Origin: Escherichia coli
GTDB lineage: Bacteria > Pseudomonadota > Gammaproteobacteria > Enterobacterales > Enterobacteriaceae
DNA length: 64,000 bases
NCBI RefSeq assembly: GCF_024223415.1
Contig: NZ_CP100500.1
Direction: 5' to 3' (one strand)
Shown here: one piece after another, positions 28,858 through 55,400 of the stretch
How positions within the stretch are numbered: position 1 is the first letter of the stretch
Layout: every line of letters begins with the position of its first letter
The notes under the pieces: model-generated
Databases searched by the model: none
The model's input: only the letters and a program-made list of their open reading frames with translations
What the model was told of the DNA's origin: nothing
Position numbers and translations under genes: made by a program

Positions 28858-29692
<835 letters not shown>

Positions 29693-33606: not shown

Positions 33607-33705
33607 GCCTGATGCGCTATGCTTATCAGGCCTACATAGTCCCTGCAATATATTGAATTAGCAAGGTTTTGTAGGCCGGATAAGGCGTTCACGCCGCATC
33701 CGGCA
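33607..33705. repeat. REP/BIME element downstream of torZ
   Basis: gcctgatgcgctatgcttatcaggcctac and gtaggccggataaggcgttcacgccgcatccggca. Confidence 0.65.
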
Positions 33706-44703: not shown

Positions 44704-44797
44704 CGGCGAGTAGGTACAAAATGATCCGCAACCAACATATTGATTCTGCAATTTCGGGACGTTACACTGTTCCAGCACCTTATAAAGCGGGTGCCGG

Positions 44798-45006
44798 GAT
44801 TGGAACCCCGGAATTGCATACGGCGATATACGACGCGCCAGCGTCTTTTTTATCGTCCGCGCTCACGCACGCCAGAATTATGGTGGGCTGGGCAGGGGAG
44901 CCGAAAGGCTCGCCGGTTTCCGTATGCGCCGGTAGTTCCAACCCTGTCCAGTTCACCACCAGTGAGATTGGAACCTCCGGTGGTGGAAGTTATCCATTGC
45001 ATACGG
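44798..45006 (+). ncRNA. Candidate structured cis-regulatory RNA / triple-repeat element between lar and rha
   Basis: Three copies of GRTTGGAAC..CCGG..GCATACGG: 44798-44823 direct, 44920-44943 inverted, 44966-45006 direct. A 16-bp helix pairs 44882-44897 with 44942-44957, and its 3 non-Watson-Crick pairs are all G-U on the + strand. A GAGCC-GAAA-GGCTC tetraloop hairpin lies at 44898-44911. A terminator-like hairpin plus T6 lies at 44832-44851. Confidence 0.4.
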
Positions 45007-50362: not shown

Positions 50363-50379
50363 TTTTGTGGAGAAAGTTG

Positions 50380-50802
50380 ATGCGTGATATTCAAATGGTT
50401 CTTGAACGTTGGGGGGCATGGGTCGCAAATAATCATGAAGACGTGGAATGGTCAGGCATTGCCGCCGGATTTAAGGGGCTGATACCGTCAAAAGTAAAAT
50501 CGCGATCGCAGTGTTCCGATGATGACGCGATGATTATATGTGGTTGTATGGCTCGCCTGAAAAAGAACAACGCCGATATGCATGACATGCTGGTTGATTA
50601 CTACGTATATGGGATGACGTTCATGAAGTTAGCAATGAAACATGGATGTTCGGATACGCATATTGGAAAGCGTTTGCAAAAAGCTGAAGGAGTGGTTGAT
50701 GGTATGTTGATGATGCTAGATGTTCGCCTTGAGATGGATCGATATGTGAGCACAAATTATTCGATACGTCGTAAAACTGCGTCCTCCAGGGCAGGGATAT
50801 AA
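50380..50802 (+). CDS. Q: Late-gene antiterminator Q (140 aa)
   Basis: [22 protein letters not shown]...[18 protein letters not shown]... resembles the Q proteins of Stx-type lambdoid phages. Confidence 0.8.
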
Positions 50803-50809
50803 GGCGTAC

Positions 50810-50837
50810 AAAATAAAAAATGGGCGCAAAGCGCCCA
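50810..50837 (-). terminator. Intrinsic terminator (minus strand), downstream of the porin gene
   Basis: TGGGCGC-ttt-GCGCCCA followed on the minus strand by TTTTTTATTTT. Confidence 0.6.
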
Positions 50838-50980
50838 AGTATAAAAACCAAAAAGGTTAATAAATAACAGAAAGTTCGTTGGAAAAGTTAAGTACTGTCC
50901 AACGTTTTGCAGTGGCATGAGGGCACCACTTTATATGCCAGAAAAGTTCTCACTCCCCCGGCATATTCTTACAGAATAAA

Positions 50981-52087
50981 TCAGAACTGATAAACCAGAC
51001 CAACAGCGACAATATCGTCGGTTGATACTCCTGTTCTTTCAGTGAATTTATTTTTATCGAGCATATTGATTTTGTAATCTATGTATGTAGACATATTTTT
51101 GTTGAAGTAATAAGAAGCCCCTACTTCAACGAATTTTTCAATATATCCGTCATCATGTTTTTTACTAATATCAGTACTGGATGAAAGGTTTTTTGCTTTA
51201 GAGTGGGTATAAGCAAGAGACGGGCGTAATCCAAAGTCGAACTGGTATTGTGCCACAACAGTGAAATCTTCGGTTTTATTCGCCACTCCTGAAATATTAT
51301 CACCATACGATATTGCACGGGTATTATTTGTTTCACCATAACTGGCAGCCAGGTACAGATTATTTGCGTCATATTTTACCCCGGTGGCCCACTGTTCAGC
51401 TTTTTTCCCTTTACCAAGCTCAGCCTTTTTCTGATTTTTAGTACGATCAGCAGCGCCGTATGCTGCGACAAAACCAAATCCTTCATATTCATAGCTGACA
51501 GAGCCACCTACACCCTCTCCGTTTGAAGTATCTGGTTTATCCTTGCGTTCATTTTTTCCCAGATACTGAATTGCAAAGCTAAGCCCATCGACCAGTCCAA
51601 AAAAGTCAGTGTTGCGGTATGTGGCAACACCGCCTACACGACCAACGAAGAAGTTATCCTTTTGCGCTGCGGTAGGTCCAAACTCCGGGAAGACGTCAGT
51701 GTAGCTTAATGCGTCGTACACCACGCCGTAGTTACGACCATAATCAAGAGAGCCAGCATCTGCAAGCTTCAGACCAGCGTATGCCAGGCGAGTCTTGTTT
51801 CCAGTTTGAGCTCCATCCCCTTCAGGGTTGTTCCCCTGGAAATTATATTCCCACTGACCAAAACCAGTAATATAATTATTTATTTGGGTTTCACCTCTGA
51901 ATCCAAGGCGTGCGTAAGTCTGATCTCCGTTTTGGTCCTTATCAGAAGAAAAATAATGTAAACCAACTGCTTTACCGTATAAATCCACTTTGTTTGCATC
52001 TTTATTGTATATTTATGCTGCATTTGAAGACGTTGCCAGAAATACTGATGCTGCTACAGCAGAAAGTGCCACTGTTAAATTTTTCAT
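50981..52087 (-). pseudogene. Phage-borne OmpC/NmpC/Lc-type porin gene interrupted by an in-frame TAA just after the signal peptide
   Basis: ATG at 52085-52087 gives MKNLTVALSAVAASVFLATSSNAA, then TAA (52013-52015), then [22 protein letters not shown]... through to the C-terminal ...VGLVYQF. Porins normally read AAEIYNKD here, so GAA has become TAA. Confidence 0.8.
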
Positions 52088-52685
52088 TTTTTATCCTCTG
52101 GTGGGAGTTAATTGGACGACAAAATGCTATCAGGATGAAAATTTAATTTCTGTGTATAATGTATACAAGGAAAATTAAGGAGTCCGATTCTTTATATGTG
52201 ATCACTATCACAAAATAAGAAGTCATGCAAACTAATAAATAGATGGCTATCTTTCACTCAGAAAATTAAGATCAATCTTTTTTATTAGAAGTGCTAAATA
52301 TATTTAATTATTTGGGTTTATGAGTTATTTATATAACCTTAATAAAGACATTACTTTTGAAGAAAAATACGTGCATAGAAGAATGCATAATCTTTAATTG
52401 TATCTTGCCAAACGTCGCAACAATCCAGAGATTGTCTGTGGGGTGAATCATGCAGCATGCAGGGTATGAACAAACACTTTACGATCGTAAAAGTATGCAT
52501 ATCATGGTAAGAGTGGTTCCTACGCCACACAACTTAAACCCGCAGCCAGGCGGTTTTTTACATCGAAAATCTGCACCGGACATTAAGCTCTTTGGCGGAC
52601 CAGATAAGAGGTGCGCTTAGTTGGGTTTGTCGGGCTTTCTCTGAGATTTGCGGTATTAATCCCGTAACGTTATTATGCTGCTCGA

Positions 52686-52761
52686 GGCCCTTTAGCTCAG
52701 TGGTGAGAGCGAGCGACTCATAATCGCAAGGGCGCTGGTTCAAATTCAGCAAGGGCCACCA
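52686..52761 (+). tRNA. tRNA with CAU anticodon (Ile2/Met type, the ileZ-like tRNA of lambdoid phages), CCA encoded
   Basis: Full cloverleaf: GGCCCTT/AAGGGCC acceptor, GCTC/GAGC D-stem, CTCATAA anticodon loop, GCTGG-TTCAAAT-TCAGC T-arm, ACCA 3' end. Confidence 0.85.
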
Positions 52762-52762
52762 A

Positions 52763-52839
52763 CCGCTACTAGCTCATCAGGAAAGAGCGTCAACCCTTTA
52801 AGTTGAGTGCGCTAGGTTCGATTCCCCGCTGGCGGTCCA
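52763..52839 (+). tRNA. Aberrant tRNA-like sequence (UUU in the anticodon position, C at position 33, weak T-stem); probable pseudo-tRNA
   Basis: Acceptor pairs 6 of 7. Good D-arm (GCTC/GAGC). Anticodon stem TCAAC/GTTGA with loop CCTTTAA. T-stem CTAGG/CCCCG has 2 mismatches. CCA is encoded. Confidence 0.4.
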
Positions 52840-52841
52840 GC

Positions 52842-52917
52842 GCCGACTTACCTCAGTCGGCAGAACAGTTTAGTTGTAACCATCAGGCCACCACTTCAAT
52901 TCCGGTAGTCGGCACTA
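52842..52917 (+). tRNA. Decayed tRNA-like sequence: perfect 7-bp acceptor stem, degenerate internal arms
   Basis: GCCGACT/AGTCGGC acceptor. D-loop AGTCGGCA and T-loop TTCAATT are recognisable. The D, anticodon and T stems are mostly mismatched. The 3' end is CTA, not CCA. Confidence 0.25.
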
Positions 52918-53254
52918 AATTTCCAGGCTCGTGCTCACGGCCTGCTTCATATCCGCGCCAGGTCCGTCGCGATTAAACCACAGGGCTTTTCAGGAGGGGC
53001 CACAGAGAGCGTCACACTGACCATTCCCTGTGGCTTGTGCTGAGATCCGGTCAGTGAAATTGTGCAAAGGGAATCTTCGGGAGCTTTGGGCAGAATGTCA
53101 GTTATTGATGTTGACATCCTCCACACCCTGAAGGTCGGGGTTTTACGGCGCACTGGATAAAATACCTGAACAAACAGCCTCTTCGTGCGGCTTTTTTATA
53201 ACGAGATTCTGACTTGCTGCCGTCCGTAATGTCGGATGGCGGAGGTGAGGGACT

Positions 53255-53527
53255 ATGAGAATGGACGAACGATACAGTAACGCTGCATACGGCAGCGCAG
53301 GACTTGTTGCGTTCTTTGCCAGCCTGTCACTGCAGGATTGGGGATTTATTATCGGCGTGGCGTTCAGTATCATTCTTGGCGTTCTTACTTATCGCCTTAA
53401 CAAACGGGAGCAGGAAAAACGAACCCGCATATTGCTCGAAATTCTGGAACGAACTAATGCCGGTAATGTTCCGGCTACGGCACATGCTGTGGCTGAGATT
53501 GCGAAAAAGGCACCAAAAGAAATATGA
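53255..53527 (+). CDS. Holin candidate (90 aa, two TM segments, Met-Arg-Met dual start)
   Basis: GGAGGTGAGGG RBS. Starts MRMDER, comparable to the lambda S MKM dual-start. Hydrophobic segments GLVAFFASLSL and WGFIIGVAFSIILGVLTY. Basic C-terminus. Lies upstream of the endolysin. Confidence 0.6.
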   Translation: MRMDERYSNAAYGSAGLVAFFASLSLQDWGFIIGVAFSIILGVLTYRLNKREQEKRTRILLEILERTNAGNVPATAHAVAEIAKKAPKEI

Positions 53528-53683
53528 CGAATATCCCGGGAGTGAGGGGATAATATACCTTTTAACAAAATCCGGGAACATGAAACGCCCGGAACGTTTC
53601 ATGAGGCATGCCCCGTGGGGAGCAGGGCATAACTGTGCGGAATAGCTTTCATTGTGATATCAATAATCACGGTATTCAAAATA

Positions 53684-54061
53684 TTACGGGCCTGTGGGAT
53701 CAGGTTGTTTTTTGTCTGATTCCAGAGGGAAGGGACGCTGTTTCGGTTCTCTGAACTTTAGTGATAATGAATTGAAAATCCTCATTTTTTGCTGCCATGC
53801 ATAATGTCTGTCCCATGAACAGGGGGGGCTCAATTCTTCATTCACCCATGCGTTAATATCTTGTTTCAGGTGTTGAAGCATACGGGGTGTTAATGCACTC
53901 ATAATAATATCCAGCGTTTTATGCGAGAGTTTACCGTAAGGGTCTGCAAGGATGCTGCTCGTTGCTTCGTTATTATCCACCATAAGTGGAAGTAGCGCTG
54001 ATTTAACTTTTTCTGTCATTAGTTGCAAAAATCTACTGCGCAAATTTTCTTTACTGTTCAT
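53684..54061 (-). CDS. Hypothetical protein (125 aa) on the opposite strand inside the lysis cassette
   Basis: ORF track. No recognisable motif. Confidence 0.5.
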   Translation of the reverse strand: MNSKENLRSRFLQLMTEKVKSALLPLMVDNNEATSSILADPYGKLSHKTLDIIMSALTPRMLQHLKQDINAWVNEELSPPCSWDRHYAWQQKMRIFNSLSLKFREPKQRPFPLESDKKQPDPTGP

Positions 54062-54184
54062 TTCTGAAGCCTCATCTGTTGTCGTTTGGTTTTCCTGAAC
54101 GGGTATGTTTATGAGACATGCTGGTACTGGATTATATACCTGATATATCCAGGGTTATAAACCTTTAGATCCTGATAAATATAC

Positions 54185-54718
54185 ATGAACGCAAAAATCA
54201 GATACGGCCTGTCGGCTGCCGTTCTGGCGCTGATTGGTGCTGGCGCATCTGCTCCTCAGATACTTGATCAGTTTCTGGACGAAAAAGAGGGTAACCACAC
54301 AACGGCATACCGCGATGGGTCCGGCATCTGGACCATCTGTCGGGGTGCCACGATGGTGGATGGAAAACCCGTTTTTCCCGGAATGAAGCTGTCGAAGGAA
54401 AAATGCGACCAGGTTAACGCTATTGAACGTGATAAGGCACTGGCATGGGTGGAGCGCAATATTAAAGTACCTCTGACCGAACCACAGAAAGCGGGTATTG
54501 CGTCATTCTGTCCCTATAACATTGGCCCCGGTAAGTGTTTCCCGTCGACGTTTTATAAGCGGCTTAATGCCGGTGATCGAAAAGGCGCCTGCGAGGCGAT
54601 TCGCTGGTGGATAAAGGATGGTGGGCGCGATTGCCGCATACGTTCAAATAACTGCTATGGACAGGTTATTCGTCGTGACCAGGAAAGCGCATTAGCCTGT
54701 TGGGGGATAGATCAGTGA
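54185..54718 (+). CDS. R: SAR-type endolysin, GH24 lysozyme (177 aa)
   Basis: Gly/Ala-rich N-terminal signal-arrest-release-like segment ([15 protein letters not shown]). E-8x-D-5x-T catalytic pattern ([16 protein letters not shown]). Confidence 0.85.
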
Positions 54719-55182
54719 GCAGAGTCGCCGCGATTATTTATGCTCTGGTTATCTGCATCATCGTCTGCCTGTCGTGGGCGGTCAATCATTACCGTGATAA
54801 CGCCATCGCCTACAAAGAACAGCGAGATAAAAAAGTCAGTGAGCTGAAGCAGGCGACCGCCACCATTACTGACATGCAGCAACGCCAGCGTGCTGCTGAT
54901 GTACTCGATGCTAAATACACGAAGGAGTTAGCTGATGCGAAAGCTAAAAATGATGCTCTTCGGCGCAAGCTTGATAATGGTGGCAGGGTGCTCGTCAAAG
55001 GAAAATGCCCTGTGCCATCCTCAGCCGAAACCTCCAGCGCCTCCGGCATGGGCAATGATGCCACCGTCGAACTCTCTCCAGTTGCTGGACGAAACGTTCT
55101 CGGTGTCCGGGACGGAATTATCCGCGACCAAACAGCACTGAGAACGCTTCAGGAATACATCAGGACGCAATGCCTTCGATGA
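54715..55182 (+). CDS. Rz: i-spanin Rz (155 aa)
   Basis: GTG at 54715 overlaps the endolysin stop. N-terminal TM followed by a coiled coil. Confidence 0.8.
54935..55141 (+). CDS. Rz1: o-spanin Rz1, embedded in the +1 frame of Rz (68 aa precursor)
   Basis: Lipobox LIMVAGC. Pro-rich mature part. Lies entirely inside Rz. Confidence 0.8.
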
Positions 55183-55322
55183 TAGCGATAATTTTACTCA
55201 TCATCCTTCACATCTGGCTCTGTAGACAGGGTGGTGATCACTTCTGGAGTGAATCCAGATTAAACATCTCATTGCTGATTCTTGATATTGAGCATCTGGC
55301 GCGCGGTAAGGGGCTGCGTTGA
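55179..55322 (+). CDS. Candidate 47-aa membrane peptide translationally coupled to Rz
   Basis: Hand translation gives [47 protein letters not shown]. Its ATG overlaps the Rz stop (ATGA). Followed by a terminator. Confidence 0.3.
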
Positions 55323-55356
55323 GATAAGAGCCAGTCATCACAAACACCAGGATTTA

Positions 55357-55380
55357 GCCTCGCATTCGCGGGGCTTTTTA
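55357..55380 (+). terminator. Intrinsic terminator downstream of the lysis genes
   Basis: GCCTCGC-attc-GCGGGGC stem plus T5. Confidence 0.65.
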
Positions 55381-55400
55381 TTGCAACAAAGGTAAAGACG

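Follow-up and report, generated by a model that had tools for sequence, protein, structure and literature searches.

Lambdoid phages that carry Shiga toxin (Stx) genes are known for a small tRNA cluster (933W type) downstream of the antiterminator gene Q. In the Stx2 phage PA29 (KP682382), tRNA-Ile, tRNA-Arg(UCG) and tRNA-Arg(UCU) are annotated between Q and stx, as the first-pass annotation of the present locus had stated, and its names for these genes, ileZ, argN and argO, are used here. tRNA genes can also be remoulded, which is a shift of the anticodon between alloacceptors, and the classic remoulded tRNAs were shown to be charged and used. In virulent phages, replacement tRNAs serve against anticodon nucleases, and phage tRNA-Lys genes rescued cells from PrrC (PMC11555353) and from AriB (PMC12445682) in published screens. 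Here, we analysed a tRNA-like array of three consecutive units in a stretch of 64,000 nucleotides from Escherichia coli (contig NZ_CP100500.1, hereafter the window). The feature is a case of ordinary gene decay, a decayed variant of the known tRNA cargo cassettes of lambdoid prophages. We consider it likely that a cassette of this kind is decaying between Q and the lysis genes and that unit 1 is its only working gene. The sequences, homologies, model scores and population distributions given below were observed directly.

Relatives of the array were sought among 5426 complete E. coli genomes and in phage records. Intact relatives at the same place, in E. coli 377323_2f (CP039404) and phage vB_EcoM-606R7 (ON470580), consist of tRNA-Ile(CAU), tRNA-Lys(UUU), then tRNA-Thr(UGU) and tRNA-Gly(UCC). 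Among phage contigs selected by pattern, about 24 arrays had this Ile-Lys-Thr-Gly order and about 90 the Ile-Arg-Arg order. The Gly gene of the cassette is identical to K-12 glyT, and the prophage Thr copies are mostly identical to thrU, with that of 377323_2f one base off. Compared with the intact cassette, units 1, 2 and 3 of the window show 3, 5 and 15 changes, respectively, and arrays in cryptic prophages drift elsewhere too, as in YD786 with 2, 3, 1 and 1 changes in its four units. Judging from these comparisons, the most likely parent of the window array is the Ile-Lys-like-Thr-Gly cassette of non-Stx lambdoid prophages. The array would then be the remnant of an Ile2(CAU), Lys-like, Thr(UGU) and Gly(UCC) cassette, in which slot 1 is of the ileZ type, slot 2 comes from the argN/Arg(UCU) lineage and slots 3 and 4 are copies of host thrU and glyT. 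Hybrid arrays were also found, with intact units 1 and 2 beside a dead unit 3 in GF4 and with Arg(UCU) in slot 2 beside a dead unit 3 in ECCNB12-2 and 135, which indicates that units have been exchanged through recombination. A full-text literature search found no paper on the Ile-Lys-like-Thr-Gly cassette, which appears undescribed in the searchable literature.

To describe the units, stem pairs were counted pair by pair, and each unit was scored with the Rfam tRNA model RF00005 at its gathering score of 29 bits. Minimum-free-energy folding was tried as a test of function and not used as such, because genuine tRNAs also failed to give cloverleaves. The three back-to-back units of the first-pass annotation were recovered, units 1 and 2 by ARAGORN with exactly the same boundaries (anticodons CAT and TTT) and unit 3 by Rfam. 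Unit 1, with 67.8 bits, has the cloverleaf, CAU anticodon and encoded CCA ascribed to it. The acceptor stem is paired 7/7 and the D stem 4/4, the loop is CTCATAA and the 3' end is ACCA, and its defects are limited to A27·A43 in the anticodon stem (4/5) and G53·U61 next to four Watson-Crick pairs in the T-stem. It is identical to ileZ of PA29 at 73/76 positions, and the Prokaryotic Genome Annotation Pipeline (PGAP) lists it as tRNA-Ile, not as a pseudogene, in a strain with the identical sequence. Unit 1 is most likely the sole unit of the window that is still a sound gene. TilS makes lysidine at C34, by which tRNA-Ile2 reads AUA, and the product of unit 1 would be converted by this enzyme into an AUA-reading tRNA-Ile2.

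Unit 3 scored 19.8 bits at 52842-52914, below the gathering score (E = 0.16 in a 501-base search), compared with 73.8 bits for an intact prophage copy of slot 3. ARAGORN made no call, and PGAP gave no annotation in the strain with the identical sequence. The pair count agreed with the earlier description of a complete acceptor stem (7/7), broken internal stems and a CTA end: the D stem keeps 2/4 pairs, the anticodon stem 2/5 and the T-stem 3/5 with the conserved G53-C61 broken, the loop is GTTGTAA and the last four bases are ACTA. By gathering score and intact cloverleaf, unit 3 falls outside the canonical tRNAs. The first-pass annotation had taken it for a relic of an arg tRNA, that is, argO. 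Its identity is 61/76 to K-12 thrU, 64/76 to a prophage Thr allele (L135) and 48/77 to argO, the last being no better than the generic resemblance of thrU to argO (53/77), and thrU has exactly the same acceptor stem. The alignment score with thrU was 46, and 2000 shuffles averaged about 7, none of them reaching 46. Considering the identity to thrU, the shared acceptor stem and a match to argO no better than generic, unit 3 is a thrU-derived pseudogene and not an argO relic.

An early stage of this decay was seen in strain M19 (L129 1657-1732), where thrU carries G24A, G42U and U43C; unit 3 of the window type has the same three and twelve further changes. The window type was present in 19 of the 5426 genomes as 22 copies, all identical and none annotated, and the unit 3 region is present twice in each of Ch1, GF60 and ECCNB12-2. 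When metagenomes were scanned for forms intermediate between a functional Thr gene and unit 3, only two exact window-type copies came up, and no intermediates. Homology to the parent cassette stops at the end of unit 3, and the 340 bases after it are complete only in the same 19 genomes. As a candidate fourth relic, 52918-52965 was placed by MAFFT on the 3' half of glyT; the shuffle test of 52918-52990 gave the random mean, so this candidate was dropped and a fourth gene for tRNA-Gly(UCC) is not demonstrable in the window by comparison with glyT.

For unit 2, the earlier account of the D-arm, the perfect anticodon stem, the loop CCTTTAA with C33, the two T-stem mismatches and the CCA end proved accurate, whereas the acceptor stem, described as kept, has a C7·C66 mismatch that had been overlooked. 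This stem is made of five Watson-Crick pairs, one G·U pair and the mismatch; the D stem is paired 4/4, the anticodon stem 5/5 and the T-stem 3/5, with U50·C64 and A51·C63 mismatched. The Rfam score of 31.2 bits is borderline, and PGAP annotates tRNA-Lys, not a pseudogene, in a strain with the identical sequence. Measured by U33 and fully paired acceptor and T stems, unit 2 is not a canonical bacterial tRNA. It is unrelated to host lysT and 60/77 identical to argN, with an alignment score of 43 that none of 2000 shuffles reached (average about 7). Judged by these alignments, unit 2 belongs to the argN lineage, as a damaged copy of a distinct UUU/C33 allele.

The UUU/C33 allele family was found in prophages of 797 of the 5426 genomes. 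In 278 of these 797, slot 2 matches the allele at 99% identity or more and is annotated tRNA-Lys, and in 474 it matches at 95-99%, mostly as damaged versions that PGAP leaves uncalled; about half of the 797 genomes have a slot 2 copy without a PGAP tRNA call. The window's unit 2 differs from the common allele by five changes (C5U, a variable-loop change, G50U, G59U and G66C), and this type was seen in two of the 5426 genomes and one metagenome contig. The other lesions sampled were T12 deletion with C70T in strains of enterohaemorrhagic E. coli (EHEC), U8C with C11U, with or without C4U, and C32U or C32A, and damaged versions are thus both common and independent across the population. When the C33-UUU frame was searched in one genome per species, the only matches came from E. 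coli, Shigella and a single unrelated metagenome-assembled genome (MAG) of Rhizobiales (L148 4059-4135). A third type of array, in E. coli 2013C-3277 (L143 524-763) and many EHEC genomes, consists of tRNA-Ile, a damaged Lys-like unit with the T12 deletion and C70T, and tRNA-Arg.

Slot 2 occurs as Arg(UCG) with the anticodon stem CCAGC/GCUGG, as Arg(UCU) with UCAGC/GCUGA or UCAAC/GUUGA, and as the Lys-like form with UCAAC/GUUGA and the loop CCUUUAA. In alignments, the Lys-like allele most resembles the Arg(UCU) alleles, from which it differs by U33C, C35U and the A51·C63 mismatch in the T-stem. All three changes take away a feature of a working Arg tRNA, namely U33, the determinant C35 for arginyl-tRNA synthetase (ArgRS) and a T-stem pair. 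The anticodon loop would have changed from CUUCUAA to CCUUUAA, by which the ArgRS determinant was lost, a formal Lys anticodon was gained and U33 became C. Rfam scores of slot 2 fall stepwise, from 54.8 bits in argN to 54.5 in Arg(UCU), 44.4 in the intact Lys-like allele and 31.2 in the window. The anticodon stem of unit 2 shows compensatory changes, which were considered as a signal of selection; this was rejected, because a functional Arg(UCU) allele (L137-type) already has the identical UCAAC/GUUGA stem; the stem changes are therefore older than the loop change.

Decoding by tRNA-Lys(UUU) depends strongly on N6-threonylcarbamoyladenosine at position 37 (t6A37) and 5-methylaminomethyl-2-thiouridine at position 34 (mnm5s2U34), and lysyl-tRNA synthetase (LysRS) prefers the discriminator A73. 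The discriminator of unit 2 is U73. E. coli TsaBCDE made no t6A37 on a U33C mutant of initiator tRNA-Met, the one substrate tested (PMC8887486). Structural damage, U73 and C33, the last through the t6A37 block, argue against decoding by unit 2, and units 2 and 3 would most simply be non-functional passengers.

The first-pass annotation had explained units 2 and 3 as relics of argN and argO of an Stx phage that have been decaying since the toxin cargo was lost. The homology of unit 2 to argN, the near identity of unit 1 to Stx-phage ileZ and the position of the array downstream of Q, which matches PA29, agree with this explanation, and it is correct in that unit 2 is a damaged homologue of argN. 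The closer fit of unit 3 to thrU than to argO, however, largely refutes it for that unit, and the UUU/C33 loop did not arise by direct decay of argN but is an allele fixed in the 797 genomes, within Ile-Lys-like-Thr-Gly arrays of non-Stx prophages. Moreover, homology to the intact arrays ends with unit 3, and the following 340 bases contain no stx-like sequence and share only a 50-base repeat with phage records. We therefore regard this explanation as very unlikely; with a non-Stx cassette as the probable parent, nothing indicates that a toxin was ever present. The repeat itself, a segment of about 50 bases (ttgacatcctccacaccctgaaggtcggggttttacggcgcactgg) at about 53110-53163, is 90-95% identical to HK97, HK106, many Stx phages and many E. 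coli plasmids, and its contexts in the phage and plasmid records are unrelated.

Upstream of unit 1, we identified a candidate promoter with the -35 element TTGCGG (52648-52653), a 17-nt spacer and the -10 element TATTAT (52671-52676), from which transcription would start 2-3 nt ahead of the mature 5' end of unit 1. Among 60 distinct upstream sequences from 179 arrays, only TTG and TTATTAT were conserved at 90% or more, at fixed spacing, and the rest was divergent; TTG-N20-TATTAT immediately precedes the first tRNA in arrays of every type, those of Stx phages included. This conserved motif suggests a dedicated sigma-70 promoter that is independent of pR', which would make expression of the array possible in lysogens besides late read-through. 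The array would be transcribed probably from this promoter and probably also by Q-dependent late read-through, and the transcript would then be cleaved by the usual enzymes of tRNA maturation. A promoter-like site at 52478-52505, followed at about 52540-52559 by a 4-bp GC hairpin with a U6 run, was noted as a weak guess for a pR'/tR'-like pair and was not used.

The codon usage of the prophage was compared with that of the neighbouring host open reading frames (ORFs). In a crude count per 1000 codons, AUA (ATA) is about twice as frequent in prophage ORFs (8.0 versus 4.2), and the values are 14.7 versus 7.2 for ACA, 5.3 versus 1.9 for AGA and 33.7 versus 35.8 for AAA. Codon supply can thus explain the Ile, Thr and Arg tRNAs but not a Lys tRNA.

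That AAA is not enriched in the prophage genes, and a Lys tRNA is thus left unexplained by codon supply, speaks in favour of a role in counter-defence, in line with the idea, given in the first-pass annotation as the less likely one, that unit 2 is a Lys-type decoy or replacement tRNA. PrrC cuts between residues 33 and 34 of its target. AriB of PARIS has tRNA-Lys(UUU) and tRNA-Thr(UGU) as prime targets and needs U36-A-A-U-C/A41, and U39A abolishes its cleavage (PMC12409363). P2 Old, the effector of P2-lambda interference, has tRNA-Thr(UGU) as main target and cuts thrU at paired CNG motifs; phage Thr tRNAs that resist Old have a shortened anticodon stem and an altered CNG motif, and host thrU gives little or no rescue (PMC12445682). 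The anticodons of the intact cassette include exactly UUU and UGU, those of the AriB and Old targets. In unit 2, UAAUCA is replaced by U36-A-A-G-U-U41 and neither stem strand contains a CNG motif, so that escape of the Lys-like tRNA from AriB and Old is predicted from sequence alone. As judged at that level, unit 2 combines the target anticodon with an altered recognition motif, as a replacement tRNA should.

Unit 2 could be a working non-canonical tRNA in one of two forms, either a nuclease-resistant replacement for host tRNA-Lys(UUU) that LysRS charges through UUU, or an uncharged decoy for PARIS AriB, P2 Old, PrrC or RloC. The rescue by phage tRNA-Lys genes is a precedent, the cut site of PrrC lies next to residue 33, and C33 is recurrent in phage tRNAs, as described below. 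On the other hand, the window copy has two T-stem mismatches, C7·C66 and a score of only 31.2 bits, its C33 would block t6A37 formation by the E. coli enzymes, and its U73 is not what LysRS prefers. In addition, the commonest Thr gene of the cassette is identical to that of the host in the anticodon arm and is predicted to be nuclease-sensitive, damaged slot 2 alleles are frequent, and among species representatives the allele is confined to E. coli and Shigella. A working counter-defence tRNA is hence quite improbable for the window copy and somewhat less so for the intact allele.

Some Thr genes do depart from the host form. Prophage thrU copies with G42U and U43C, in which two anticodon-stem pairs are open and the CNG motif of the 3' strand is gone, occur in several unrelated array contexts (L129, L131, L132, L133, L136-L141) with 54.8-63.6 bits, and in one copy (L135 4615-4690), which scores 66.9 bits, the stem is GAUGA/UCAUC and thus fully compensated. 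Similar changes have been published as those by which phage Thr tRNAs resist P2 Old. The parent cassette may be a lambdoid counter-defence module against the Toprim nucleases of P2/P4-type rivals (P2 Old and PARIS AriB) and/or PrrC-type nucleases, an idea that is improbable. If it were true, the Arg-bodied UUU/C33 tRNA would act either as a Lys tRNA that escapes cleavage or as a decoy, the G42U/U43C variants of thrU, which are widespread, would be Old-resistant Thr tRNAs, the window would hold a decayed remnant, and U33C might be a recurrent adaptive change in phage tRNAs.

We further asked how common C33 is in phages by scanning IMG/VR for a tRNA frame with set anticodon loops. The C33 loop CCTTTAA (Lys) gave at least 120 matches, and those not belonging to the E. 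coli family comprised at least 41 distinct sequences, some 35 being tRNA-like, whereas CATTTAA (A33) gave 11 and CGTTTAA (G33) 7. The C33 loops CCTGTAA (Thr) and CCGTTAA (Asn) gave at least 120 matches each, and CCCATAA (Met/Ile) gave 58. Of 2541 ARAGORN tRNAs in the fetched loci, 1962 had T at position 33, 565 had C, 8 had A and 6 had G; this sample is biased, as loci had been picked for one C33 tRNA, but C far outnumbers A and G nonetheless. C33 was seen with Lys, Thr, Asn, Met, Val, Ser, Pro, Glu and Gly anticodons and in up to one third of the tRNAs of some tRNA-rich phages. Since C33 recurs in well-formed phage tRNAs, it is by itself no evidence of decay. No paper on C33 in phage tRNAs was found in a full-text literature search. 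Example loci are L154, L158, L171, L172, L181, L191, L210, L357 and L491 of IMG/VR, besides the Rhizobiales MAG mentioned above.

Several observations weigh against simple decay of units 2 and 3. Unit 2 passes the Rfam threshold, and ARAGORN and PGAP both name it tRNA-Lys, so that the result that the first-pass annotation had expected to speak against it, a tRNA finder scoring these units as normal, came out half true for unit 2, with unit 3 uncalled. In six sampled E. coli alleles of slot 2, selected through identity to slot 2, about 12 changes were counted, all of them outside the anticodon stem, C33 and the anticodon; the loop varies only at position 32, a weak hint with a post hoc P of about 0.06. 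The polymorphism of slot 2 is not above that of slots 3 and 4 in the phage contigs, a comparison biased by the search pattern, which fixes part of slot 2. C33 recurs in many otherwise well-formed phage tRNAs, and A33 and G33 are rare. Finally, the 15 changes of unit 3 all lie at positions 10-57 or 75 and leave the acceptor stem untouched, a clustering (post hoc P about 0.002-0.05) that would not be expected from simple uniform decay.

The last observation bears on whether unit 3 was kept for a non-decoding role in the polycistronic transcript, where it might provide a structural hairpin or a signal for processing, either by mimicking an acceptor/T-arm towards RNase P or RNase E or through a new hairpin at its 5' end. 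The acceptor stem is complete, and positions 58-74, the 17 nt before the terminal CTA, are unchanged in contrast with the 15 substitutions elsewhere. The D-loop changes A17C and U20C make AGUCGGC, which repeats the 3' acceptor strand, and thereby build the 7-bp hairpin GCCGACU-UACCUC-AGUCGGC (52842-52861; -12.2 kcal/mol, z = -4.5), which came to light in the minimum-free-energy fold and competes with the cloverleaf. The 22 copies in 19 genomes are identical, but recent common descent explains this equally well, and diverged copies for comparison were found neither in the genomes nor in the metagenomes. The P value for the clustering was obtained post hoc, functional alleles are polymorphic for U20C and thus leave only one unique change, and the hairpin is not followed by a U-tract. 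Such a role is highly improbable, and decay of a cassette with one working gene remains our preferred reading.

The window is composed of E. coli chromosome in its first half and lambdoid prophage in its second half, and Rfam matches to the host small RNAs C0465, MicL and ES036 at 15316-15393, 29385-29692 and 33628-33670 assign the first half to the cutC region. The array lies downstream of Q, as previously noted, and the holin-like ORF, 5' of the lysozyme and Rz genes, is the downstream limit of the cargo slot (Table 1). The segment from Q to the lysis genes (50380-55384) shares 99.2% identity with a module that in strain Ch1 belongs to a different prophage, inserted beside mlrA, and the remainder of the two prophages differs. 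The placement of the porin gene is comparable to that of nmpC in the K-12 prophage DLP12; in ECCNB12-2, an element of the IS5 family adjoins this gene. In the early prophage region, adjacent Rfam matches to isrK (63.6 bits) and the C4 antisense RNA (84.3 bits) span 44775-44963.

Table 1. Features of the prophage cargo slot and its borders in the window
Feature	Coordinates	Strand	Basis or context
Q-family antiterminator gene	50365..50802	+	ORF of 145 aa; Ch1 counterpart module annotated 'antiterminator Q family protein'
Porin gene	50981-52087	-	Between Q and the tRNA array
Sigma-70-like promoter candidate of the tRNA array	52648..52676	+	Conservation upstream of slot 1
tRNA-like array	52686-52917	+	Downstream of Q, followed by holin-like ORF, lysozyme and Rz
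Unit 1, intact ileZ-type tRNA-Ile2, anticodon CAU, encoded CCA	52686..52761	+	ARAGORN, Rfam, PGAP
Unit 2, damaged prophage 'Lys-like' tRNA with Arg-family body, C33, UUU, U73 and CCA	52763..52839	+	ARAGORN, PGAP, Rfam
Unit 3, dead tRNA-Thr(UGU) gene derived from thrU, 3' end CTA	52842..52917	+	Alignment to thrU, Rfam, stem count
Holin-like ORF, start of the lysis cassette	53255..53527	+	ORF of 90 aa; several genomes in which the DNA is identical annotate 'phage holin family protein'

The result for the window is mainly a correction, in that an Ile, Lys-like and Thr array is decaying and not an ileZ-argN-argO array, and the automatic tRNA-Lys label of unit 2 should be taken with caution. The interest of the locus itself is modest, and the leads from it are wider. 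A prophage tRNA in which an Arg body is combined with C33 and a UUU anticodon occurs in about 15% of complete E. coli genomes, and the cassette joins the anticodons hit by the nucleases PARIS and P2 Old, through which lambdoid infection is aborted. If the counter-defence idea were true, the concept of phage tRNAs as anti-nuclease cargo would reach from virulent T5-like to temperate lambdoid phages. C33 is apparently tolerated or favoured in many phage tRNAs in spite of the t6A block by E. coli enzymes.

Compared with the intact Ile-Lys-like-Thr-Gly cassette, the window array has the same order, spacing and position, the slot 2 allele family with UUU and C33, and the thrU-type acceptor stem in slot 3, but it has no demonstrable Gly gene and is joined to another downstream module, as in the 19 genomes. 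With the ileZ-argN-argO cluster of Stx phages it shares the place downstream of Q, an ileZ-type first gene, a homologous slot 2 with the same family of acceptor stem and the unusual U73 discriminator, and the promoter-like motif upstream of slot 1. It differs from that cluster in the slot 2 loop, which is CCUUUAA in place of CUUCGAA, in a slot 3 from thrU (UGU) and not argO, in the damage of units 2 and 3 and in the absence of stx genes after the tRNAs. As in tRNA remoulding, an Arg body in slot 2 would have obtained a Lys anticodon through point changes in the loop, with structural decay later; in contrast with the classic cases, non-function is the likelier reading of slot 2, which is known here as a sequence. 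Like the replacement tRNAs of virulent phages (Lys, Thr and Asn of T5 against AriB, tRNA-Thr against Old and tRNA-Lys against PrrC), the cassette has the anticodons UUU and UGU, and the anticodon arm of its Lys-like tRNA is without the published recognition motifs of AriB and Old. Unlike them, it is known from sequence and sits in a temperate prophage, its Thr copy is identical to that of the host, C33 and the T-stem mismatch of the Lys-like tRNA speak against efficient decoding, and the copies in the window are degraded.

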